Origin: a virus | Taxonomy: Duplodnaviria > Heunggongvirae > Uroviricota > Caudoviricetes | Direction: 5' to 3' (one strand) | Virus record (IMG/VR): IMGVR_UViG_2778261631_000002 | DNA length: 64,000 bases | Part shown: one piece after another, positions 36,813 through 54,932 of the stretch | How the letters are laid out: every line of letters begins with the position of its first letter | How positions within the stretch are numbered: position 1 is the stretch's first letter | The notes under the pieces: generated by a model | The model's input: only the letters and a program-made list of their open reading frames with translations | Database searches by the model: none | What the model was told of the DNA's origin: nothing | Translations under genes and position numbers: made by a program

Positions 36813-36837
36813 GTCAACAAGTGACTTTCAATAAAAT
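36813..36837 (+). promoter_or_regulatory. Candidate Lpa-dependent late promoter of the head/sheath operon (GTCAACAAGTGACT then TAAAAT)
   Basis: Motif shared with sites at 17109 and 49289. Confidence 0.4.
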
Positions 36838-36867: not shown

Positions 36868-38595
36868 TTGTGTTTAAGGAAGAGTAACTTGAGTAACTTA
36901 CGCGAATACCAGAATCGTATTGCAGATATCGCAAAACGCTCTAAAGCCGTTCTTGGCTGGGCAAGTACAGCACAGTTCGGTACTGATAACCAATTCATCA
37001 AAGATGATGCCGCGCGTGCCGCATCTATCCTTGAAGCTGCACGTAAAGACCCAATTTTTGCGGGTATCTCTGATAATGCCACCGCTCAAATTGCTACCGC
37101 GTGGGCAAGTGCACTGGCTGACTACGCCGCAGCACATAAATCTATGCCGCGTCCGGAAATTCTGGCCTCCTGCCACCAGACGCTGGAAAACTGCCTGATT
37201 GAGTCCACCCGCAATAGCATGGATGCCACTAATAAAGCGATGCTGGAATCCGTCGCAGCAGAGATGATGAGCGTTTCTGACGGTGTTATGCGTCTGCCTT
37301 TATTCCTCGCGATGATCCTGCCTGTTCAGTTGGGGGCAGCTACCGCTGATGCGTGTACCTTCATTCCGGTTACGCGTGACCAGTCCGACATCTATGAAGT
37401 CTTTAACGTGGCAGGTTCCTCTTTTGGTTCTTATGCTGCTGGTGATGTTCTGGACATGCAATCCGTCGGTGTGTACAGCCAGTTACGCCGCCGCTATGTG
37501 CTGGTGGCAAGCTCCGATGGCACCAGCAAAACCGCAACCTTCAAGATGGAAGACTTCGAAGGCCAGAATGTACCAATCCGAAAAGGTCGCACTAACATCT
37601 ACGTTAACCGTATTAAGTCTGTTGTTGATAACGGTTCCGGCAGCCTACTTCACTCGTTTACTAATGCTGCTGGTGAGCAAATCACTGTTACCTGCTCTCT
37701 GAACTACAACATTGGTCAGATTGCCCTGTCGTTCTCCAAAGCGCCGGATAAAGGCACTGAGATCGCAATTGAGACGGAAATCAATATTGAAGCCGCTCCT
37801 GAGCTGATCCCGCTGATCAACCACGAAATGAAGAAATACACCCTGTTCCCAAGCCAGTTCGTTATCGCGGCTGAGCACACGGTACAGGCGGCGTATGAAG
37901 CACAGCGTGAATTTGGTCTGGACCTGGGTTCCCTACAGTTCCGCACCCTGAAGGAATACCTGTCTCATGAACAGGATATGCTGCGTCTTCGCATCATGAT
38001 CTGGCGTACTCTTGCGACCGACACCTTTGACATCGCTCTGCCGGTTAACCAGTCCTTTGATGTATGGGCAACCATCATTCGTGGCAAATTCCAGACTGTA
38101 TATCGCGACATTATTGAGCGCGTTAAATCTTCTGGTGCGATGGGGATGTTTGCTGGTGCTGATGCAGCATCTTTCTTCAAACAGTTGCCGAAGGATTTCT
38201 TCCAGCCAGCCGAAGACTATATCCAGACTCCGTATGTTCACTACATCGGTACCCTGTTCGGTAACGTGAAAGTGTACGAAGTACCTGCTGGTATTTGTAA
38301 GAACTTAACGACAGAGAACATTCAGTTCAGCTCGATGGATGTGCTGTGCTACGTCCGTGATGAAAATCCGGGTAAAGCAGGCTTCGTGACTGGTGATGCT
38401 GTCCCGGCTATCCCGTTCCAGCATCCGACCACTCCGGCGCTGGTCAACCGTACCACACTGTGGGGTTCGGCTATCAACGATATGCACCCACGCAACGGCG
38501 CTGATTACTTCACTCGTGTAACGCTGACAATGGCCAAAAAAGGCGGGCTTAACTTCATAAGCGGCGACACGATTGATGCCGGTGACTCTGAGTAA
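36868..38595 (+). CDS. Major head (capsid) protein, P1 gene 23 equivalent (true start possibly TTG at 36889)
   Basis: About 570-aa ORF after parS, as gene 23 is in P1; RBS AAGGAAGAG precedes the TTG at 36889. Confidence 0.65.
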   Translation: MCLRKSNLSNLREYQNRIADIAKRSKAVLGWASTAQFGTDNQFIKDDAARAASILEAARKDPIFAGISDNATAQIATAWASALADYAAAHKSMPRPEILASCHQTLENCLIESTRNSMDATNKAMLESVAAEMMSVSDGVMRLPLFLAMILPVQLGAATADACTFIPVTRDQSDIYEVFNVAGSSFGSYAAGDVLDMQSVGVYSQLRRRYVLVASSDGTSKTATFKMEDFEGQNVPIRKGRTNIYVNRIKSVVDNGSGSLLHSFTNAAGEQITVTCSLNYNIGQIALSFSKAPDKGTEIAIETEINIEAAPELIPLINHEMKKYTLFPSQFVIAAEHTVQAAYEAQREFGLDLGSLQFRTLKEYLSHEQDMLRLRIMIWRTLATDTFDIALPVNQSFDVWATIIRGKFQTVYRDIIERVKSSGAMGMFAGADAASFFKQLPKDFFQPAEDYIQTPYVHYIGTLFGNVKVYEVPAGICKNLTTENIQFSSMDVLCYVRDENPGKAGFVTGDAVPAIPFQHPTTPALVNRTTLWGSAINDMHPRNGADYFTRVTLTMAKKGGLNFISGDTIDAGDSE

Positions 38596-38621
38596 TCAGG
38601 GGAAGTTCTCCGTTTAACATA

Positions 38622-38640
38622 GCGCCCCCGTGCGGGGCGC
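38622..38640 (+). terminator. GC-rich stem-loop between the capsid and sheath genes (possible attenuator; no U-run)
   Basis: GCGCCCC-CGTGC-GGGGCGC. Confidence 0.3.
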
Positions 38641-38655
38641 ATAACAGGGAAAGTT

Positions 38656-40245
38656 ATGTCTCAATATTCAATTCAACAGTCATTAGGTAATGCATCCGGC
38701 GTCGCGGTTAGCCCGATCAATGCCGATGCTACGTTATCTACCGGTGTTGCATTAAATAGCAGCTTGTGGGCTGGTATTGGCGTATTTGCGCGTGGCAAGC
38801 CGTTTACTGTTCTTGCGGTTACTGAGTCCAATTACGAAGATGTTCTCGGCGAACCGCTGAAGCCGTCTTCCGGCTCACAGTTCGAACCAATTCGCCATGT
38901 GTACGAAGCTATTCAGCAAACGTCTGGTTATGTTGTCCGTGCTGTTCCGGATGATGCGAAGTTCCCGATTATTATGTTCGATGAATCAGGCGAACCGGCT
39001 TACAGTGCGTTGCCATATGGTTCTGAAATTGAACTTGATAGCGGCGAAGCCTTTGCTATCTACGTTGATGATGGTGATCCGTGTATTTCACCTACCCGTG
39101 AGTTAACCATCGAAACGGCAACAGCGGACAGCGCGGGTAATGAACGCTTCCTCTTAAAACTGACCCAGACGACTTCGCTCGGTGTGGTAACGACCCTGGA
39201 GACACACACTGTGTCTTTGGCGGAAGAAGCGAAAGATGACATGGGCCGCTTGTGTTATCTGCCTACGGCTCTGGAAGCCCGTTCTAAATATCTGCGCGCG
39301 GTTGTTAATGAAGATCTGATTTCTACAGCGAAAGTAACAAACAAAAAATCGTTGGCGTTCACTGGTGGTACCAACGGTGATCAGTCGAAAATCTCAACCG
39401 CTGCGTACCTGCGTGCGGTGAAAGTGCTGAACAATGCGCCGTACATGTACACCGCTGTTCTTGGCTTGGGCTGCTATGACAATGCGGCTATCACCGCATT
39501 AGGTAAAATCTGTGCAGATCGCCTGATTGATGGCTTCTTTGATGTCAAACCGACATTGACGTACACGGAAGCGATCTCTGCTGTTGAAGATACCGGTTTA
39601 CTTGGTACCGATTATGTAAGCTGTGCTGTCTATCACTTCCCGTTCTCCTGCAAAGACAAATGGACCCAATCCCGTGTGGTCTTCGGTCTGTCTGGCTCGG
39701 CGTATGCGGCGAAAGCTCGTGGCGTCAAGAAAAACTCTGATGTCGGCGGTTGGCATTACTCACCGGCTGGTGAAGAACGTGCCGTCATTGCTCGTGCGTC
39801 AATTCAACCGCTGTATCCGGAAGATACCCCGGACGAAGAAGCAATGGTCAAGGGCCGTCTCAATAAAGTATCTGTTGGCACCTCTGGCCAGATGATCATC
39901 GACGATGCTTTAACTTGCTGCACGCAGGATAACTATCTGCACTTCCAGCACGTCCCATCCCTGATGAATGCAATCAGCCGTTTCTTTGTCCAGTTAGCCC
40001 GACAGATGAAGCATAGCCCGGACGGTATTACTGCGGCTGGTCTGACTAAAGGGATGACCAAACTTTTAGATCGCTTTGTCGCCTCCGGCGCTCTGGTGGC
40101 TCCTCGTGATCCTGATGCTGACGGTACAGAACCGTATGTGCTGAAAGTTACGCAGGCGGAATTCGATAAATGGGAAGCAGTCTGGGCCTGCTGCCCGACT
40201 GGCGTAGCCCGTCGTATCCAGGGCGTACCGCTGCTTATTAAGTAA
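38656..40245 (+). CDS. Contractile tail sheath protein candidate, P1 gene 22 equivalent (529 aa)
   Basis: Size and position after the major head gene; assignment by synteny. Confidence 0.55.
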   Translation: MSQYSIQQSLGNASGVAVSPINADATLSTGVALNSSLWAGIGVFARGKPFTVLAVTESNYEDVLGEPLKPSSGSQFEPIRHVYEAIQQTSGYVVRAVPDDAKFPIIMFDESGEPAYSALPYGSEIELDSGEAFAIYVDDGDPCISPTRELTIETATADSAGNERFLLKLTQTTSLGVVTTLETHTVSLAEEAKDDMGRLCYLPTALEARSKYLRAVVNEDLISTAKVTNKKSLAFTGGTNGDQSKISTAAYLRAVKVLNNAPYMYTAVLGLGCYDNAAITALGKICADRLIDGFFDVKPTLTYTEAISAVEDTGLLGTDYVSCAVYHFPFSCKDKWTQSRVVFGLSGSAYAAKARGVKKNSDVGGWHYSPAGEERAVIARASIQPLYPEDTPDEEAMVKGRLNKVSVGTSGQMIIDDALTCCTQDNYLHFQHVPSLMNAISRFFVQLARQMKHSPDGITAAGLTKGMTKLLDRFVASGALVAPRDPDADGTEPYVLKVTQAEFDKWEAVWACCPTGVARRIQGVPLLIK

Positions 40246-40254
40246 GGGAATACA

Positions 40255-41070
40255 ATGAGCAAAAACTTTTTTCAATCCGGGGCATTTTTGGGGAATGGAC
40301 TGTCCCGTTTCGCTTTGAACTCTGATCCTGTGCAGCTGATGGAGTCTGCCCGAGCAAGCGCCGAACCGCCAACAGATCCGGTTATTAATAATAATCCGGA
40401 ACCGGCGGCACAGACTAACGATAACGTTCCATCTGATCCGGCTCCTGAGCAAATCCTGGAAGAGAAAGACGGTAAAGAATGGACCGTTGAACAGGCGCAC
40501 CAGATGATTCTGGAAGCTGCAAATCGAAGTGCGATGCAGAATGCGTTGAGTGATGCGGCCGACGCCGTTTTCGCCTGGGCTGATAGCGGTGATCTGACTT
40601 TCGACTCCCTTGATGGTTTCATTCAGGCTATCGCTGGTATCTCTGATGACGACGACTCCGAAGTTACAGAAGAACAGGACGATGCCTATAACGAAGCATG
40701 GGCAAATGTTGCTGACTTCCTCGCAGCATGCGGTGTAGATGATGACATGATCGAAGCACTGGCTGACGATGAAGACGACGACGCTGCTGCTGATGTTGGT
40801 GCCTCTATCGCTGGTTTAGATAGCGACGACCGCGACGAACTGGAAGCGGCGTTTGTTGTTGCTGGCACTTCTGATGAAATGCTGACTGAAGCATTTAAGA
40901 AGGTTGTTCGTAACGGTGAGATCAAACTCATCCGTAAACGCCTGCGGAAAAAACGTCTGACTGCGGCTCAAAAATCGGCGCTGAAAAAAGCGCGTCGAAA
41001 AGCCCAGACCGGCGCGGCAAAACTTGCCCGCAAAAAGTCAATGAAACTGCGCAGTAAGCGCCTTGGCTAA
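40255..41070 (+). CDS. Highly acidic protein with Lys/Arg-rich C-terminal tail (271 aa)
   Basis: Asp/Glu runs (DDDDSEVTEEQDD, DDEDDDAAAD) then KRLRKKRLTAAQKSALKKARRKAQ. Confidence 0.55.
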   Translation: MSKNFFQSGAFLGNGLSRFALNSDPVQLMESARASAEPPTDPVINNNPEPAAQTNDNVPSDPAPEQILEEKDGKEWTVEQAHQMILEAANRSAMQNALSDAADAVFAWADSGDLTFDSLDGFIQAIAGISDDDDSEVTEEQDDAYNEAWANVADFLAACGVDDDMIEALADDEDDDAAADVGASIAGLDSDDRDELEAAFVVAGTSDEMLTEAFKKVVRNGEIKLIRKRLRKKRLTAAQKSALKKARRKAQTGAAKLARKKSMKLRSKRLG

Positions 41071-41105
41071 AGGAGGAGGCCGGAGAACTCCGGCCTTTAA
41101 CTTGA

Positions 41106-41687
41106 ATGGCACCTATACCTTATGGGGTTTACAGCCAGGCTGATGGTGTATCGCCATTTCTGAAAGTTACTTTAACGAACTCTCAGTACCAGGTTACCGG
41201 ATATATCAGCCAGGGGGCAGCAATGAACATGGCCCAGAATTGGGAAGCGCCGTTTACCGGTATGTCCATGGGGTCTGTTGCTGGTGCTTTCAGTGGTTTT
41301 GCGCAGGTTGGTACTGAAACAACGTCGGTGGCCCGTTGGAACAGCTTAATGGTTTGGGAGGGGGGAACACCGCCGACTTTCACGCTGCCAGTAACTTTCA
41401 TCGCTTTGTTTGACCCATTCACGGAGGTTTCAGGAGCTATCGCCGCATTGTCAGCGATGATTAGCCCGGAACTTAAAGATGCCAGTATTGGTGGTCGAAT
41501 CCCGGAGCGTGTGACGCTAAACATTGGTCGCCGGATCAACATCATTGATGTCGCTATCCAGGACATAAGTTTCGATCTCGATGCACCCAGGGACAGCAAT
41601 GGGCATTTCCTGAAAAACACCGTCAACCTCCAGTTGACCGGTTCTTCGATATATAACAGCTCCGATATTGTTCGGGCGTTCCAGTAA
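41106..41687 (+). CDS. Tail structural protein candidate (193 aa)
   Basis: ORF after a short hairpin at 41075-41095. Confidence 0.5.
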   Translation: MAPIPYGVYSQADGVSPFLKVTLTNSQYQVTGYISQGAAMNMAQNWEAPFTGMSMGSVAGAFSGFAQVGTETTSVARWNSLMVWEGGTPPTFTLPVTFIALFDPFTEVSGAIAALSAMISPELKDASIGGRIPERVTLNIGRRINIIDVAIQDISFDLDAPRDSNGHFLKNTVNLQLTGSSIYNSSDIVRAFQ

Positions 41688-41698
41688 AAGGATTTTAT

Positions 41699-42208
41699 AT
41701 GGGGCACAATAACACTAAGGGAAACCGTAAATTTATTAAGGGCCGCTATACTGCCAACGCGGCCAAAGGCGAACGACTGGTATCTTCTGAATTCCAGCTC
41801 ACTTTTGCAGGCCATGAAGATATCAGCGTACTGGTTCGCACGTCGCAAATTCCTGAAATGACCCGCGAGGATGTGGAGGACTATGGTCCGAATGGTGTGA
41901 AGTTCAACCAGCACGGTCCAATTCGAAACTCTGGGGAAATCCAGGTCCAGTGCGTGGAGACTATCGAAGGCGATATTCTTCAGTTCATTAAAGATCGCAT
42001 TGCGGCGAAGGACTATGTTGATATCACGATGGCTGCTACCCCTGAATCCAAATCTTCCGGGGTTAACGCTGTGACAAAAGCTGCTACAACAATTGAAATG
42101 TTGGACTGCAAAATCTACAGTGATGCAATCGACTTTAGTACCGAAGATGTGACTGCCGCTGTGCGCCCGTCACTTCGTATCGTCTACAACTGGATTGAGT
42201 GGGATTAA
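41699..42208 (+). CDS. Tail tube-like protein candidate (169 aa)
   Basis: Size and position typical of myovirus tube proteins; tentative. Confidence 0.45.
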   Translation: MGHNNTKGNRKFIKGRYTANAAKGERLVSSEFQLTFAGHEDISVLVRTSQIPEMTREDVEDYGPNGVKFNQHGPIRNSGEIQVQCVETIEGDILQFIKDRIAAKDYVDITMAATPESKSSGVNAVTKAATTIEMLDCKIYSDAIDFSTEDVTAAVRPSLRIVYNWIEWD

Positions 42209-42238
42209 GTGTTATCCCTTGTACTTTTAATCTTCTTC

Positions 42239-42259
42239 GGGGGAGGTTTACCTCCCCTT
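42239..42259 (+). terminator. Stem-loop at the boundary of the AT-rich island (weak U-run)
   Basis: GGGGAGG-TTTA-CCTCCCC. Confidence 0.4.
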
Positions 42260-42505
42260 GATACAACCGCATTCCACCGCCTAGCGAATAGAGTAAAATA
42301 ACATCTTGTAAATACTCTGGTATGAAGTGAGTGTAAACTAACAGTTACCTATTAATAAATACTCCTATACTTTTCTACCTTAAATATTTAGTATGCACAT
42401 GGTTAAATTTATGTAGCGTCAAAGTTTGTGAAGGCAAGATGTCCGTTAATCTTTGTCGAAGCATATATGGTTCTAGGAAGTATTGGCTTATTTAAGAGGA
42501 ATGTC

Positions 42506-43498
42506 ATGTTACGTATCAATGATATGAGCAATATTATTGTAGGTATTTACAGCAAAAAAAATGAAGAAAAATCATTTGAGTATATGTACTCTTATCTGAC
42601 AAGGAAAACAGCTTATTTAACACGTGAGTTTATTCGTGATGGTAATCAGGATAAAGAATTATTAAAAAATACCTATATAGAAGCATTGTCTTGGCTTTTT
42701 GCAATCTGTGATAAACTTGAAATACAACCACAGGAAGCATTTTATAAAAAATTTCCTAGTTGCTGTCCTTATTGCTTAGGGGCGCCTTGTTCCTGTTCTC
42801 AAACACACAGAAAGCCAGAGAAAATAAGAAGCGCAAAAGGAATTAAAGATGAGCTTTTCAATAAATATAACGCTATTAAACCTATGCAATTTCCGCCTTA
42901 TGCGCCACGAATGATTAATGACATCTATCCGTCGAATAGAACCATTTGGTCTACTTTTGGTGGGTTTTATCATTCATCCAGGTTATTCGAAGAGTTGGGT
43001 GAGTTGCAAGAGGCTTATGCTAAATCAATTGAAGATAAAAATTACAACAAAGAAAATCTTCATGAAGAGTGTGCTGATATATATGCTTGGTTGTTTTCTT
43101 TATGGGGGATTATTTTTAAAGATGATGATCTTGGCGAGGCGTTTGAAAGTTATTATCTAAATGGTTGTCCTGTCTGCAATAAAAGAGAATGTGTTTGTGT
43201 CAGTTATTCAGGGAAGATTAGTAAAACTGATGAGAAAAGAGCATCATTGGAAAAACTTAAACAAGAGTTAGAACTTCTCTTGAAGGATGAGACGACAGGT
43301 GAGTTTAAGGAGAATTTAGAGTCTGCTATATCTGCAATTAAAGATGCGATAGACTCAGGAAAAGATGCAGATAGCAGAAGAACTTTATCGGAAGTCGAAA
43401 GTGTTCTTGACTCAATCGAAAAAAATTCAGCCAAGATGTCTAGTGTGGCAAGTAACGCCCTTAATGTTTTTAATGTAATCAGTAAGTTATTCCAATAA
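42506..43498 (+). CDS. MazG-like NTP-pyrophosphohydrolase-fold protein with two Cys clusters and C-terminal coiled coil (330 aa from ATG 42506; alternative ATG at 42467)
   Basis: FEELGELQEAYAKS...HEECADIYAWLFSLWG matches the EExxE / EExxD helices of MazG/HisE-type all-alpha NTP-PPases; CCPYCLGAPCSC and CPVCNKRECVC clusters; strongly AT-rich codon usage unlike its neighbours. Confidence 0.6.
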   Translation: MLRINDMSNIIVGIYSKKNEEKSFEYMYSYLTRKTAYLTREFIRDGNQDKELLKNTYIEALSWLFAICDKLEIQPQEAFYKKFPSCCPYCLGAPCSCSQTHRKPEKIRSAKGIKDELFNKYNAIKPMQFPPYAPRMINDIYPSNRTIWSTFGGFYHSSRLFEELGELQEAYAKSIEDKNYNKENLHEECADIYAWLFSLWGIIFKDDDLGEAFESYYLNGCPVCNKRECVCVSYSGKISKTDEKRASLEKLKQELELLLKDETTGEFKENLESAISAIKDAIDSGKDADSRRTLSEVESVLDSIEKNSAKMSSVASNALNVFNVISKLFQ

Positions 43499-43505
43499 TG
43501 GTGCC

Positions 43506-43550
43506 CACCGGTTTGTTAGAAAATGAACCGGTGTTGTATTATTTATTATT
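43506..43550 (+). terminator. Rho-independent terminator after the MazG-like gene
   Basis: CACCGGTT-loop-AACCGGTG followed by a T-rich run. Confidence 0.6.
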
Positions 43551-43852
43551 AAATTAATTTTAATCCTAATAGATGGATGTTTGTTGTGGATATAATTTGT
43601 TTAAGTTTTAGGTGTATTTTTCCATATATAATCTAGGTGGTATTAGCGAAGCAAGTATGGAATTTTGTTAACAGCTAGATATTTCTGAAAGTCATCATGT
43701 CGCGAAGGCTATTGGGAGATATGGTCTGAATCTTTGCATGATGTGAAATAACTCCTTCTACTTCATTGTGTTTTACACTATTGGGGAGAAAAGGGTGCAT
43801 TGAGGTTACCAGACACACGAAGAGTGGCGGGGATCACTCCCCGCCAGGTCTC

Positions 43853-44008
43853 TTACCTTTCAGATTCGTAGGCTGTGAAGACAGTGACCTCCGTCTGGCC
43901 GGTTCGGATTCGTACCTCGCAGAGGTCTTTCCTCGTTACCAGTGCCGTCACAATGACGGTTAAACAGATGACGATCAGAGCGATTAACATCGCTTTTTGC
44001 TGCTTCAT
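43853..44008 (-). CDS. hok: Hok/Gef-family type I toxin, 51 aa (MKQQKAMLIALIVICLTVIVTALVTRKDLCEVRIRTGQTEVTVFTAYESER)
   Basis: Near-identity in pattern to HokC/Gef (MKQHKAMIVALIVICITAVVAALVTRKDLCEVHIRTGQTEVAVFTAYESE); AGGAG RBS; below the ORF-track size cutoff. Confidence 0.8.
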   Translation of the reverse strand: MKQQKAMLIALIVICLTVIVTALVTRKDLCEVRIRTGQTEVTVFTAYESER

Positions 44009-44066
44009 AGCCTGCTTCTCCTTGACCTTTTGGTCGGTAAGAGGCTAATCTACGTATGCTAAGCAT
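43860..44066 (-). CDS. mok: mok-like overlapping reading frame (68 codons) coupling hok translation
   Basis: ORF in a different frame starting upstream of and overlapping hok, the canonical hok/mok/sok arrangement. Confidence 0.5.
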   Translation of the reverse strand: MLSIRRLASYRPKGQGEAGYEAAKSDVNRSDRHLFNRHCDGTGNEERPLRGTNPNRPDGGHCLHSLRI

Positions 44067-44090
44067 AGATATGGCCTCAGATTAATGTTA
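44010..44090 (+). ncRNA. sok: Predicted Sok-like antisense RNA region (boundaries not determined)
   Basis: By analogy with hok/sok loci the antisense RNA is antisense to the mok start region; TTGACC -35-like hexamer at about 44023 on the plus strand. Confidence 0.3.
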
Positions 44091-44189
44091 AGCGTCTTGC
44101 AGGACGCGTAATGTTATCTGGGGCTTTCTTCTATCTGCTTTTCGGGTCATGCCTGAAGCAGATAGCCTCAAGCACCCGCAACGATTGTA

Positions 44190-47624: not shown

Positions 47625-47715
47625 CGCTGCTAAACAGGTGGCAGGACGTGACGGGGTTAGCAGACTGGCGATTGTGAAACCAGCAGGCCGAAGCCTCCCC
47701 ATCACGCCCCACCAT
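47625..47715 (-). ncRNA. c4: c4-like antisense regulatory RNA region (approximate)
   Basis: Between the operator at 47900 and icd; GTTTAGCAGC occurs twice and its complement CTGCTAAC downstream, consistent with c4 pairing with targets in its own transcript; stem-forming GGTGGGG...CCTGCCACC ends. Confidence 0.4.
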
Positions 47716-47899
47716 AATTTGGGCGTAACGCGGTTTTACGGACACAAAAATACCGCAATATCGGATATCTGCGGCTGTCCGCACAATCATTCAGGCTGCT
47801 AAACCCGGTCGCAGAATTTGCTACGACGGCGAAACTATAAGCCTGAACGATTAAAAGGTCAATATGATGCAAAAAGATAGCATTCGCGACTTAAAAATA

Positions 47900-49319: not shown

Positions 49320-49910
<591 letters not shown>

Positions 49911-49920
49911 GGGGGCTGAT

Positions 49921-50532
49921 ATGGGGCTTAATGTTGCTTCAGTAAAGTCTTATGTATCTTCAGCATTAACGACGACATTATTTGGCTCCGGCGTTGGTGA
50001 ACGGGAAGTTGGTAAGCTGACGTCAATCATCATGAACAAAATGCTGTTCGCGCAAGGATGGCAGTTCTCTGTCGAAGTTGATGGACTGGAGGGGGCAGAC
50101 TTCTTTGCCAAAGATATTACCTACCACGATTACAGCATCGAATATGAAACGATTAAAATCGGCGGAGGGAATATCCTTCAGCCAACGGAGCGTTCGCCTG
50201 GGCAGATAACCATGATGGTCAGGGATACCGTTGATGGCCTCGTTTTGGACTGGTTTAAGACGGCAAAAAGTCGGGTGATCAATCCGGACGGTACCGGGAA
50301 TATACCGTCTAAATATTTGCTCAATGTGCGTATTTATCGGTTGCTGTCCTCCGGTTTAACCAAACTGGAAAATGAGATGACGGTATTCCCGGTCACTACC
50401 GGCGATGTCACCTATGCGCGGGATCAGGTTACGGAATTTAAGTCATTCCCAATGACCTTCGCATTGCACAGCACGTTTAACCAATCCTCAAGTTCTTTGG
50501 CTTCCCTTCTGGGCTTTAGTTTTTCTCTTTGA
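49921..50532 (+). CDS. Tail tube candidate (203 aa)
   Basis: Size and position upstream of the tape-measure-like sit gene; tentative. Confidence 0.45.
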   Translation: MGLNVASVKSYVSSALTTTLFGSGVGEREVGKLTSIIMNKMLFAQGWQFSVEVDGLEGADFFAKDITYHDYSIEYETIKIGGGNILQPTERSPGQITMMVRDTVDGLVLDWFKTAKSRVINPDGTGNIPSKYLLNVRIYRLLSSGLTKLENEMTVFPVTTGDVTYARDQVTEFKSFPMTFALHSTFNQSSSSLASLLGFSFSL

Positions 50533-50546
50533 ATTAAGGAGCAAGG

Positions 50547-51428
50547 ATGCTTTTACCCCTTTTCCCGCTACCATCGCGGCCAACTGAATTGATCCAGTTC
50601 CGTCAGCCAAATATTGCTGATGCGATGCGTTTCAACTCGATAACACCGGAGGAACAAGAACAACAGACAACGGCATATTTAAAAGCCTTGCTGGTTGAAC
50701 CCGCGAAACATGATCCCCTGACATGGACGGCGCAGGACCGGATTACCGCGTTATGGTGGATATTTACCGGCTCCCGTGAAACACCGGTCGAGACATTCAC
50801 CTACACCTGTAAACATTGCGGTAAAGAGCATTATTACGATTGCGATATGAATGCTCTGGCTGAAGATATCCAGGTCCTGGAAGTGGAACCGTTCATTGAC
50901 GATATTGAGGTGTCTGTAGAGGGAGTGCCTTATCAATGGCGTATCGTGCCGCTTGATGGTTGGGCAATGGAAATGCTGGAGATGCGCCGTGCAGCATTGC
51001 CACCTGAAGACGACGCGGAATTCAAAGAAGCGATCGTTGATTTGCGTTTTTGGGAATTCGCTTATCAGTGTGAGCTTTATAACGATGTTAGCGGTACTCG
51101 TGAAGATCAGGCTGAGCGTCGTTATGAAACGATTAAACGGATGGCCATTGATACTGAATTTATGAAGCTGGCGGCACACATCCGACTGGCTCATGAAAAG
51201 CTCGAACATGGTTTACCGTGCTACATCGATAAAGGTGAAATGCGTCTTCGTCTCCCGCCGCATAAATGCCCAAATCAGGATAAAAAGGAGTCCACAGAGG
51301 GTGCGTATACCCGTCTGTGGGTGCCCTTTCGGGCTACCGACTTCATTCCACAGGTGGGGATTGAAAAGCTATCAGACCTTAGTGTCCAACCTGGTTTTGT
51401 ATGGGGGTATACCGATTCAGGACGCTGA
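50547..51428 (+). CDS. Hypothetical tail assembly protein (293 aa)
   Basis: ORF directly upstream of sit. Confidence 0.5.
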   Translation: MLLPLFPLPSRPTELIQFRQPNIADAMRFNSITPEEQEQQTTAYLKALLVEPAKHDPLTWTAQDRITALWWIFTGSRETPVETFTYTCKHCGKEHYYDCDMNALAEDIQVLEVEPFIDDIEVSVEGVPYQWRIVPLDGWAMEMLEMRRAALPPEDDAEFKEAIVDLRFWEFAYQCELYNDVSGTREDQAERRYETIKRMAIDTEFMKLAAHIRLAHEKLEHGLPCYIDKGEMRLRLPPHKCPNQDKKESTEGAYTRLWVPFRATDFIPQVGIEKLSDLSVQPGFVWGYTDSGR

Positions 51429-51509
51429 AAGGCTTACTGAATCCTATGCGTTTTTCCTGTTGGAGAAACTGGAAGAAAAACTTAAACCGAAACGGTAGGC
51501 GATAAGATC

Positions 51510-54500
51510 ATGGAAAGAAAAAACGCCAACATTGACGATGTTATAAGGACAGTTGAAACCGCCAGCGCAAAAGAGCTGGAAGAGCTTGCAGGTATCCGGG
51601 AAGCTGTTGAAGATTTGAAAGGGGGACGCGTTGCAACTGTTGATCCTGTCTCTCGCAGTGTGTCGGCATTAAATCGCACAATCGAAAATTCACGTCCTGA
51701 CTTTGTGACCAATGCGCCATCAGTGGACCCTATTGTTGACGCAATGAAACGGCTTAATTTAGGGGACGTTTCTCGTGTAGTTCAGGAGGGCATTGCTCAA
51801 CAGGAACAGCAGGACAAATCAACTACACCAAAGGGTAAAAAACGACGCAGGAAGGCTATACCAGAGGATATAAAGGCACAACGGACCGAAGCAGCCGAAC
51901 ACGCTCGCGAAATGTTCGATCAAAAAGGCGGTGCGCAAAAAAGCCAAAACCAACGCGATGCGCGTGGTCGTTTTATTGGAAAGTCAGGGAGTAAGGCCGC
52001 AGCGGAAGATGCCCGTGCTGAACGTGCTGAAAAGGCCAGGCGCAAAGAGGATGATGAGCGTCTAAATGTTGAATCAGGTTTATTAAAAAAACTGTCAAAA
52101 GTAGCTGAAGGCATAGGTAACTCTTCAGAGACTCGTGCCGTCGATGCGTTAGGTTATGCCGTTGCTGGTCCATTGTGGGCAGCAGGGAAGGAGCTTGGCG
52201 GGATATCAAAAGAAGTTGGTGGATCGCTTAATGGTGCCAGAAAGTCTATTGCCGATGTGATTCGTGGCAATGACGATAACAGCCGTAGAAAAGGTTTTTT
52301 TAGGCGTAAATCGCAAAATAGTGCCGATGTCGTTCAGGTTAACACCCAAAAACGGACGGTTCAGGAACTTCAGGAGCAGACCAGCGAAATTAAAGAGGGC
52401 AATGACAAGATTCTCAGCGCCCTTGATCAGATAGCCAAAAACACCGGGAAAAAGAAGGGCGGCTTGCTGTCCAAACTATTTAGCCTGTTAGGGAAGGGGG
52501 CCGGTGGCGTCGCGTCGTTGTTAATGGGGCATGGCATGCTGAAAAAAGCTGGAGCACTCGCTTTTGGCGCTCTGGGGGCAAAGAAACTTGTAGGAATGCT
52601 ACGCGGTGGTGGCAAGAAGACTCTCGCCCATGAAGGTGGAGATTTGGCTGCCCGGGCAGCAGGTAAACTTGGATTAAAGGCAGTTGGTAAAGGGGCGTTA
52701 CGCGCAATTCCCCTAGTCGGCACAGTGGCTGGAGGTATTTATGATGCGGTAACCGGTTGGAATGATACAGAAGCGCAACGTCGAGCGTTTGGGCTTAAAT
52801 CAGGACAAGATCCATCATTCCAGCAAAAAGCCGCTTATACGTTAGCCAATGTTCTTGATATGGGGGGACTGGTATCTGGTATTAGCAGCGCCATTGGTGA
52901 GGTTCTCAAATCACTTGGATTTGAGGATATCGGCAATATGTTGCAATCATTTTCGACGGAAAGTATTGCCCAGGCCATTGATAGTGGGATTACCAACTTA
53001 GAAACATATATTTCTAACCTTGGCGACACCATTTCTACCAAGTTCGAAGATTACACAGCAAAGATTGGTGATGCTGTTTCAGCATGGTTTAGCGATACAT
53101 CTAATAAGCTGCTTGAAAAGCTGGATGCCATCAAAGACTTCTTTACTGTTGATAACCTGAAACAGGTTTTCAGTGATGCAATTGATAGTGCAATTGATTT
53201 CATTAAGAACCCAGGGAAACACATTAAAGAGGCGGCTGGTAATATTTGGGATGGGGTTAAAAATTTACCTGGTAAAGCATTAGATGCAGCGGTTGATGCC
53301 GTTAAAAATACCCCTGCGGCAATGATTGTATCAAAAATACCCAATCCGATCGGCGAGGCTAATGCGAAAGAAATCACTCCAGAGTTAAAAGCTCCGGTTA
53401 ATAGCCACCAGGAGACATCTGATTCTAAAACTGAATCCGATGCCAAACAGACTAATATTGTTACCCGCGTGATAAATGCGGCACTGGACACGGCGAAAGA
53501 TAGCAATAAAACAGTTAAAGAAACTGCTAATCAGATTATCAATGCAAATGCCGTAGAAACGGGCAATAGCGCGTTGCAGAAAATTGATAATGCTATTGGA
53601 CAAAATAGCTCGTCATCATCGTCGCTTAATACCACTGGCACCAGGAATGACATTCAGAAAGCAGCGGATACCTACAACAATGGCAACTTGGATGTAAAAG
53701 TCGGAAATCTTGGTGCTGAAGGTAAGGCAAATCTAGATAAGTTGGCACCGTATTTTGCTGAACTAGAGAATAAATATGGCCTTCCAGAAGGCACTCTTTA
53801 CTCGATTGCTGCAACTGAATCAGGAGGGGATCCTAACGCAAAGTCTCCGCTTACAAGATCACCAGATGGAAAGTTAAGTGGTGGCGCACTCGGGATGTTC
53901 CAGTTCACGAGTATTGCTCGTAAAGAGACTGGGATATCGGAACCGGATGCATTTGATCCTGTGAAATCGGCAGAAGCTGCGGCTCTTCTCATGAGCAAGT
54001 ATCTGAAGCAAGCCAATGGAGATTTAAACGAGGCCATAACTGCATATAACGCTGGGTTTGGCACTATTAATAAGTGGAAAAAAGGCACCGGTGACTTATC
54101 GAAAGAAAACCGTGAGTACGCGATCAAGGTCAATACTCATCGTGCTCGCTATTTAGGTGGTGACATCTATACACCTGGAGCAGGAGCACAGGGTGGGGCG
54201 CAATATGGAGTGAGGGGACCACTGCCTGATAACGCTGTTATCGATCAGTCTACTGGCCTGGCGTTTACCCCTGGTGATAGCCCGTTTGAGAAAGGCGGTC
54301 TGGTAGACAAAATAGGTAATGCTGTTGGCGTTAACGATCTGGTCAACAAATTCATGAATGGCCGGGGTATGCGTCGGGAAGTCGTTCAGGGAACGCTCGA
54401 AGAACGTGCACGAGGGAAGGGGACCGCAACAGCAGCTGGCAATGTGTATGTTGATACTCCGATGCCAGTTGAAGAGGCGCGTCCGGTGGCCAGCAACTCA

Positions 54501-54932
54501 AGTTACTTTGACCAACTCGGCGCACAAATGGGGATTGATGGACTATTCGATAAACTCCGCAATTCGCCGGGGATGCGGAAAAATAATGCGCCTGAACCAG
54601 CCTCCACGTCCCAAGTGACGACTGCCACCAACGATTTGCAGCAACCAACCGGTCGTATGCAGATAGACGGGCAGGTTATTAGTGACCTTGGCGGTTCTGG
54701 TGCCAAGCCGACAATGCAGTTGGCTGATAATACCGTTTCACTTGATGGTGAAACGAAGCGGCTGTTTGCGCAGATGACCTCATTGCTTGCCAGGATTGAA
54801 GAGCACACCAAAGACTCGGCGAAAGGCCAGGGAACTGTCGTAAAGGTCAGCACGCCTCAGCCGGGCGTTATGCGCACGGTACCACTGTCAATTGATGATC
54901 CGTTGATGAATGACTACGCGAGAGTTGATTGA
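51510..54932 (+). CDS. sit: Sit: structural injection transglycosylase / tape-measure-like protein (1140 aa)
   Basis: Gly/Ala/Lys-rich helical repeats and a C-terminal soluble lytic transglycosylase domain (...TESGGDP...GMFQF...AYNAG...); the length equals what I recall for P1 Sit. Confidence 0.8.
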   Translation: MERKNANIDDVIRTVETASAKELEELAGIREAVEDLKGGRVATVDPVSRSVSALNRTIENSRPDFVTNAPSVDPIVDAMKRLNLGDVSRVVQEGIAQQEQQDKSTTPKGKKRRRKAIPEDIKAQRTEAAEHAREMFDQKGGAQKSQNQRDARGRFIGKSGSKAAAEDARAERAEKARRKEDDERLNVESGLLKKLSKVAEGIGNSSETRAVDALGYAVAGPLWAAGKELGGISKEVGGSLNGARKSIADVIRGNDDNSRRKGFFRRKSQNSADVVQVNTQKRTVQELQEQTSEIKEGNDKILSALDQIAKNTGKKKGGLLSKLFSLLGKGAGGVASLLMGHGMLKKAGALAFGALGAKKLVGMLRGGGKKTLAHEGGDLAARAAGKLGLKAVGKGALRAIPLVGTVAGGIYDAVTGWNDTEAQRRAFGLKSGQDPSFQQKAAYTLANVLDMGGLVSGISSAIGEVLKSLGFEDIGNMLQSFSTESIAQAIDSGITNLETYISNLGDTISTKFEDYTAKIGDAVSAWFSDTSNKLLEKLDAIKDFFTVDNLKQVFSDAIDSAIDFIKNPGKHIKEAAGNIWDGVKNLPGKALDAAVDAVKNTPAAMIVSKIPNPIGEANAKEITPELKAPVNSHQETSDSKTESDAKQTNIVTRVINAALDTAKDSNKTVKETANQIINANAVETGNSALQKIDNAIGQNSSSSSSLNTTGTRNDIQKAADTYNNGNLDVKVGNLGAEGKANLDKLAPYFAELENKYGLPEGTLYSIAATESGGDPNAKSPLTRSPDGKLSGGALGMFQFTSIARKETGISEPDAFDPVKSAEAAALLMSKYLKQANGDLNEAITAYNAGFGTINKWKKGTGDLSKENREYAIKVNTHRARYLGGDIYTPGAGAQGGAQYGVRGPLPDNAVIDQSTGLAFTPGDSPFEKGGLVDKIGNAVGVNDLVNKFMNGRGMRREVVQGTLEERARGKGTATAAGNVYVDTPMPVEEARPVASNSSYFDQLGAQMGIDGLFDKLRNSPGMRKNNAPEPASTSQVTTATNDLQQPTGRMQIDGQVISDLGGSGAKPTMQLADNTVSLDGETKRLFAQMTSLLARIEEHTKDSAKGQGTVVKVSTPQPGVMRTVPLSIDDPLMNDYARVD

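Follow-up and report, generated by a model that had tools for sequence, protein, structure and literature searches.

Gene 21 of a P1-type phage-plasmid encodes a charge-bipolar protein of three parts and a candidate tail-assembly factor

Phages lambda and P2 encode tail assembly chaperones in their tail operons; building a tail needs these proteins, and virions do not contain them. Head scaffolds of the P22 gp8 type have an elongated acidic helical body and a small basic C-terminal helix-turn-helix that docks electrostatically on the subunit of the structure being built, and they leave after assembly.

P1 is the classical phage of transduction, and among Enterobacterales its phage-plasmid relatives are carriers of resistance genes. 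In the curated P1 record (AF234172) the genes run in the order parB, parS/LP23, 23 (capsid), 22 (sheath), 21, pmgG and bplB, and the product of gene 21 (gp21) is given as 'baseplate or tail tube'. A genome-wide CRISPRi study classifies gene 21 as essential, with polar effects on pmgG and bplB confounding the score, and in its table the gene is marked 'amber mutant reported' with reference to Walker and Walker 1983. Cryo-EM of the P1 tail identified BplB as the tube, gp22 as the sheath and gp24 as the terminator. In the whole virion, again by cryo-EM, Tub was assigned as tube initiator and PmgG as tube linker, along with gp6, gp5, UpfC, UpfB, PmgA, gp16, BplA and gp26, and the parts also include hub, spike, wedge and plug proteins. 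Neither of these two studies names gp21 among its modelled proteins. Gene 21 is among the very few amber-defined tail genes with a product outside this near-complete atomic parts list and outside known families.

Here we describe gene 21 in a stretch of viral DNA of 64,000 nucleotides (the window). We report that gp21 is made up of three parts, an N-terminal motif, an acidic all-helical domain and a basic module of approximately 55 residues, which are newly described here. The coordinates of these parts and of the surrounding features are given in Table 1.

Table 1. Gene 21, the parts of its product and the associated features, given as window positions.
Feature	Position	Strand	Basis
Late promoter LP23 (-22 box, -10 box), head of operon 23-22-21-pmgG-bplB	36819..36837	+	Sequence identical to LP23 annotated in P1 AF234172
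Gene 23, major capsid protein	36868..38595	+	Annotated P1 start = TTG 36889
Gene 22, tail sheath	38656..40245	+	phrog_1036 tail sheath, E 2.7e-230; gp22 is the sheath in cryo-EM
Gene 21 (gp21), 271 aa, phrog_1053	40255..41070	+	96-98% identity to P1 gp21 (AAQ14028.1) and P7 upf54.2
N-terminal short linear motif LMESA, residues 28-32, in predicted-disordered region	40336..40350	+	Motif enrichment; pLDDT <50 at residues 6-47
Variable Pro-rich disordered linker, residues 33-77	40351..40485	+	Low pLDDT; mean pairwise identity 0.24
Acidic all-helical domain, residues 78-205	40486..40869	+	AlphaFold2 block, pLDDT ~75-93; mean pairwise identity 0.36
Basic C-terminal module, residues 216-271	40900..41067	+	Predicted beta-hairpin and helix-turn-helix; mean pairwise identity 0.62
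GC-rich hairpin, gene 21-pmgG gap	41075..41098	+	Folding of 41060-41110: -23.3 kcal/mol, z -3.6
pmgG, tube-linking (T4 gp48-like) baseplate protein, tube-to-hub linker	41106..41687	+	phrog_1114; cryo-EM assignment
bplB, major tail tube protein	41699..42208	+	phrog_1120; tube built of BplB in cryo-EM
Displaced second half of ancestral tail module: pmgC, tub, pmgB, sit (tape measure)	49344..54932	+	PHROG assignments; contiguous with bplB in 36 divergent loci

The ORF at 40255-41070 (+) encodes 271 aa, has an ATG start and a TAA stop, and its identity of 96-98% to P1 gp21 holds at both the DNA and the protein level; the surrounding region 38600-42300 is 97-99% identical to P1, P7, RCS47, SJ46 and others. 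The window is a P1-type phage-plasmid and the ORF is gene 21 of bacteriophage P1; the feature is real, and the gene was already known. Compared with its P1 counterpart (AAQ14028.1; Upf54.2 in P7), the window gp21 is equal in length, shows only a few substitutions and belongs to the same operon, 23-22-21-pmgG-bplB, behind LP23, whereas elsewhere the plasmid departs from P1, namely in its ParB and in the cargo that separates bplB from repL. Within this cargo, an ORF at 42428-43498 (+; 356 aa) in a low-GC segment (GC 0.376 for 42001-44000) stands in place of the P1 genes pmgF-rlfB-rlfA; it gave weak MazG/NTP pyrophosphohydrolase matches, and no phage record matched it in a megablast search. A hok/mok/sok type I toxin-antitoxin locus, which some P1-like phages have, is located at 43853-44177 (-), with a hok-like ORF at 43853-44008 and the sok RNA (Rfam RF01794) at 44003-44177 (113.9 bits). 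Moreover, the C4 antisense RNA (RF01695) of the P1 immI region and its a1/b1 targets (RF03163) are present at 47634-47840 (-).

The identical LP23 ahead of the operon marks gene 21 as a late morphogenetic gene. At the head of the operon, the mechanical ORF of gene 23 opens at TTG 36868 and the annotated P1 start equals TTG 36889 (region 36868-36912); the gap between genes 22 and 21 is 9 nt. T4 genes 38 and 25 have hairpin-bridged ribosome-binding sites, and the pmgG leader resembles them: the hairpin at 41075-41098, with a 10-bp stem and -23.3 kcal/mol in its 51-nt context, separates an SD-like AAGGAGGAGG from the pmgG ATG at 41106, and the distance between the two is ~29 nt in linear form and ~5-7 nt with the hairpin formed (region 41070-41108). 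Alternatively, the hairpin could stabilise the mRNA or partially terminate transcription behind gene 21.

An earlier reading made from the sequence alone (the sequence-only reading) had described a strongly acidic protein of 271 aa with a basic tail, and the composition agrees with this. The pI is 4.46, the net charge -20, and D+E amounts to 19.2% of the residues, rank 3 among the 59 window ORFs of at least 150 aa. Specifically, residues 78-205 contain 36 D/E vs 2 K/R, and residues 216-271 contain 24 K/R in 56 positions, giving a pI of ~12 taken alone; the last 51 residues carry a net charge of +21, with +7 for the runner-up among the same 59 ORFs. The Asp/Glu runs, noted earlier as long, are short (DDDD at 131-134, DDD at 162-164 and DDEDDD at 171-176). 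Likewise, the placement between sheath and tube genes is correct in that gene 21 follows the sheath gene 22, but the next gene is pmgG and the tube gene bplB comes only thereafter. Since the charge layout is kept in 252 full-length gp21 relatives (median charge of the core -31 and of the tail +21), this bipolar layout is a selected feature, beyond what chance would give.

The AlphaFold2 model of gp21 (mean pLDDT 69.8) has residues 1-75 disordered, a confident block at 78-205 with predicted helices at 78-111, 116-126, 139-158, 163-171, 175-186 and 190-205, and a C-terminal part in which a short hairpin is followed by a basic helix-turn-helix (237-269). The predicted beta-hairpin before the basic helices, residues 218-223, is conserved. 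Mean pairwise identity climbs along the protein, from 0.24 in the N-terminus over 0.36 in the acidic domain to 0.62 in the basic module, which is the most conserved region and holds five of the six invariant columns in alignment A1; in the same alignment, the Pro-rich insertion is confined to the P1/JK004 clade. In the N-terminal region the motif [LMIVF]{2}[ED][SN]x was counted 0.65 times per N-region vs 0.02 in shuffles (~30-fold), and it is repeated three to four times in the relatives P0139, P0241 and P0242.

The consensus of the basic module is KVVRxGKV...KKRxRKxRxSAAQKAALKKARxKAHT...RxKSMKxRxxRG. It is doubled in P0238, P0263 and P0265, and in P0299, P0300 and P0303 it stands alone in proteins of 76-95 aa with a short acidic N-terminus. 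Judged by these occurrences the module appears as a portable unit. P0303 is placed between a T4-type capsid gene and a sheath gene on an unrelated myovirus-like contig, and P0299 and P0300 are located on contigs of ~200-246 kb, P0299 being flanked by clamp-loader and SbcC-like genes; the stand-alone module among DNA-metabolism genes hints at nucleic-acid binding. Searched alone, the module matched phrog_1053 only and retrieved mainly truncated gp21 fragments together with a few stand-alone forms, whose genomic contexts disagree. Stand-alone proteins of this kind (76-85 aa, a short acidic N-terminus and the gp21 basic module) are encoded at L167 (10001-10258) and L168 (10001-10231), one of the pair in a structural block beside a T4 Gp23-type capsid gene on a myovirus-like contig and the other among clamp-loader/SbcC-like genes on a contig of ~200 kb.

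An exhaustive profile search gave a gp21 family of 603 clusters at 50% identity, from P1-like elements of Enterobacterales, Vibrio, Alteromonas, Xenorhabdus and Mailhella and from metagenomes, the records being unnamed or labelled 'tail tube' or 'baseplate or tail tube'. The 'tail tube' labels of the relatives appear to be propagated. The label 'tail tube protein Gp21' is a misannotation derived from the genetic phrase 'baseplate or tail tube'; widespread as it is, this label is wrong and needs replacing.

The phrog_1053 profile matches gp21 over residues 10-270 at about E 3e-98 (3.3e-98) and was matched by 39/39 aligned family members. No Pfam domain was found in gp21 at E values up to 0.1, and phrog_1053, a family with no function assigned, was the only match in the Pfam and PHROG scans. 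Weak matches to phrog_1346 ('tail protein') and Pfam Tape_meas_lam_C were dropped as they were not reproduced across the 39 family members. Profile searches of PDB sequences with the whole gp21 family and with the basic module gave nothing significant, and structure searches with the AlphaFold2 model found no fold relatives outside its own family. Hence, gp21 is without a detectable sequence or fold relative outside the phrog_1053 family. Clear homology to a tail chaperone or a scaffold, which the sequence-only reading had named as an outcome that would speak against it, was not found for gp21.

Weak 'head scaffolding protein' PHROG matches were seen in 3 of the 39 family members, and together with the scaffold-like composition and the capsid gene two genes upstream they would fit gp21 as a head scaffolding protein. 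These matches are, however, not reproducible (E 0.019-0.022), P1 is held to have no separate head scaffold and to use the N-terminal domain of gp23 instead, and gene 21 is annotated as a tail gene; we regard this reading as extremely improbable. What survives, in modified form, of the scaffold-like protein suggested earlier is an apparent tail-assembly factor that leaves the particle, not a head scaffold.

Injected into the host or made early, a DNA-mimic anti-restriction protein of the Ocr/ArdA type would act against type I restriction, as the sequence-only reading had suggested for gp21, and the one property that fits is the strong acidity. To our knowledge, DNA mimics lack a strongly basic tail, and that of gp21 amounts to +21. 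No Ocr/ArdA family match in Pfam or PHROG and no structural match was obtained for gp21, and no Ocr/ArdA-like fold or charge array was seen. Moreover, gene 21 is behind the late promoter LP23, it is annotated as a morphogenesis (tail) gene with amber mutants reported, and its product was undetected in virions. Anti-restriction in P1 is assigned to the Dar proteins, DarB for EcoK and EcoB and DdrA for EcoA. An anti-restriction role for gp21 is therefore barely credible.

In the LC-MS/MS analysis of purified P1 virions (Table 1 of that study), ORFs 54 (BplB), 55 (PmgG), 57 (gp22) and 58 (gp23) were found while ORF 56 (gp21) is absent, and P1 gp21 is nowhere discussed in the proteome paper and its supplement. 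The same proteome also missed PmgA, UpfC, gp5 and gp26. The absence of gp21 from virions is soft evidence, since the proteome missed at least four true virion proteins, gp21 has few usable peptides (four to five tryptic ones, with NFFQSGAFLGNGLSR, FALNSDPVQLMESAR, EWTVEQAHQMILEAANR and DELEAAFVVAGTSDEMLTEAFK suited to targeted MS) and tail-cavity contents were unseen. With this softness in mind, the idea of a packaged or internal virion protein is not borne out, as gp21 is absent from both the proteome and the two sets of cryo-EM models.

Nevertheless, gp21 might be a low-copy virion protein that shares the tail cavity with Sit, or is located at the DNA end, and enters the host by ejection, the basic module binding the negative lumen or DNA. 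The lumen of the P1 tube has been reported as negative and cryo-EM left what fills the tail cavity, Sit included, unresolved, which together with the real low-copy virion proteins missed by the proteome, the few usable gp21 peptides and the stand-alone basic module among DNA-metabolism genes is consistent with such a location. Sit (51510-54932 +) has 1140 aa, including a globular transglycosylase domain, and would span ~1710 Å at 1.5 Å per residue, vs a P1 tube of 52-53 rings of ~40 Å (~2100 Å), so that the Sit ruler looks short for the tail; this, too, would fit such a location. Against it, gp21 was undetected in virions while Sit gave 23 peptides, and the lengths of gp21 and the tape measure are not correlated (rho 0.25, p 0.18). 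We therefore consider a tail-cavity protein quite unlikely. Highly improbable is the specific version in which gp21 rides the tail cavity with Sit at few copies, is held by its module to the negative lumen or the DNA end and is ejected, the acidic domain then acting as a polyanion or DNA mimic in the host. If the ejected tail-cavity reading were true, the basic module would be a new portable targeting domain for the tail lumen or DNA end, common to stand-alone proteins of other large phages.

To place gp21 among the tail genes we used 36 divergent loci from a scan repeated with distant gp21 members, the first scan having given near-identical P1 copies only. The order capsid, sheath, gp21, PmgG, BplB, PmgC, Tub, PmgB, tape measure and wedge is invariant in 36/36 of them, and both in the window and in all 36 gp21 is directly between the sheath gene and pmgG/bplB. 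These data show gp21 to be a universal, position-fixed member of the tail module. In P1-type genomes the module is broken after bplB, its second half being located at 49344-54932 in the window. The divergent loci (L002, L004, L085-L117 and L128) have an unbroken tail module from the sheath through the wedge genes, and the P1-type break (bplB at 41699-42208 vs 49344) is filled by the repL/kilA/ant/c4 block of immunity and lytic-replicon genes.

The classical chaperone slot, immediately upstream of the tape measure, is occupied by pmgB (50547-51428 +). PmgB, the other essential P1 tail protein missing from virions, has been proposed in the literature as a tape-measure chaperone. Among PmgB relatives, 17 of 28 match the Pfam family T4_baseplate (PF12322; best E 2.3e-6), the L004 homologue gave a weak PHROG 'baseplate hub' match, and the family has four invariant residues, C88, C91, H95 and C241. 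The T4_baseplate match and the invariant Cys/His residues argue for PmgB as a hub-type protein of the T4 baseplate family, and not a tape-measure chaperone, and the data suggest that it is a zinc-binding hub-assembly protein. No recognisable G/GT-type chaperone gene was found among the tail-module members examined, and gp21 is the sole conserved member of the module with reported amber mutants that has neither an assigned function nor been detected in virions.

Given these properties, the reading that we somewhat favour, at a little better than even probability, is that gp21 is a non-structural or transiently bound scaffold or chaperone of tail assembly, acting in hub/tube initiation or tube growth and not belonging to the G/GT family. 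Its probable action is that of an electrostatic scaffold or chaperone at the transition from hub/tube initiation to tube polymerisation. The basic module would dock on an acidic surface of a tail subunit: every protein of the tail module is acidic, and a negative charge has been reported for the tube lumen. A second partner, perhaps Sit or a subunit not yet polymerised, may be bound by the acidic domain together with the N-terminal motif, and the stacking of BplB rings would then displace gp21. In this way gp21 would take over the job that a frameshifted G/GT-type chaperone has in other long-tailed phages. What counts against a chaperone is that gp21 lies outside the chaperone slot by the tape measure and is without a possible frameshift product.

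Covariation in charge and length between gp21 and the tape measure, tube, linker, initiator, adaptor, PmgB and sheath was analysed in 29 loci and gave no consistent signal (27 tests; lowest p 0.014 and 0.050, uncorrected). Across these 29 loci the tape-measure charge ranges from -19 to +78 and that of gp21 is nearly constant. Because several of the tape measures are net acidic, bulk-charge pairing of the acidic gp21 core with the tape measure is not general, and a picture in which the core coats the tape measure is weakened.

The label 'baseplate or tail tube' does not split hub assembly from tube growth, and gp21 might therefore be a hub/baseplate assembly cofactor that works before tube growth, e.g., with PmgB in assembling gp6, gp5 and Sit, as proposed for T4 gp26/gp51, rather than a chaperone of tape measure or tube. 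PmgB, a T4_baseplate family member undetected in virions, is conserved alongside gp21, and for P1 proteins without an assignment Gonzales et al. raised the possibility that they act as chaperones or cofactors in the manner of T4 gp26 and gp51. The gp21 gene is, however, always beside the sheath, tube-linker and tube genes and not the hub/spike genes, and gp21 is without similarity to any T4 hub factor; we consider a hub cofactor unlikely. Alternatively, gp21 might be a sheath chaperone that caps gp22 monomers and blocks premature polysheath until a tube is available. Gene 21 comes right after the sheath gene in 36/36 loci, gp21 has the conserved predicted beta-hairpin before its basic helices and, as seen by cryo-EM, P1 sheath contacts are made via beta-sheet augmentation. 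Gene 21 is, on the other hand, classed with the baseplate/tube genes and not with the sheath gene 22, and a pure defect in such a function should leave naked tubes. A sheath chaperone thus appears very unlikely. Knowledge of what gp21 does would close the gap left in the assembly of the P1 tail and explain how a contractile tail is made without a canonical frameshifted chaperone.

Finally, we compare gp21 with known systems. Ocr (T7 gp0.3) and ArdA are very acidic, as is gp21, but gp21 is late, annotated as morphogenetic and basic-tailed, and has no family or fold match to them. As a candidate tube protein of the T4 gp19 family gp21 was rejected: its model consists of helices and disordered stretches, with no beta-sandwich of the tube type, BplB forms the P1 tube, and only the neighbourhood is in common. 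The lambda gpG/gpGT and P2 gpE/gpE+E' chaperones are acidic proteins that go together with a basic tape measure, and the acidic core of gp21 (pI of the protein 4.46) parallels this: the pI values of lambda G and T and of P2 E are 4.35-5.05, those of their tape measures 8.6-9.4, and that of Sit 8.76. The literature is also consistent with gp21 being required for the tail yet missing from the mature virion, with the soft evidence for the latter noted above. Differences are that lambda gpG and P2 gpE have approximately half the size of gp21, that these classical chaperones are without the basic module carried by gp21, and that their genes are located just upstream of the tape measure, while gene 21 is separated from it by five genes in the ancestral order and by ~10 kb in the window. 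Gene 21 has slippery heptamers at 40948 and 40984; a shift into the -1 frame would, however, run into a stop at 41054, upstream of the regular one, and no Pfam/PHROG, PDB sequence or fold match links gp21 to the chaperone families. Membership of the G/GT chaperone family was rejected on the lack of a frameshift extension, the wrong slot, the extra basic module and the lack of similarity; what we infer, by analogy only, is a function similar to that of the classical chaperones. The P22 gp8 type of scaffold acts on heads and not on tails and has no homology to gp21, and yet gp21 is like it in combining an acidic helical body with a basic C-terminal helical hairpin, to which gp21 adds the N-terminal linear motif.
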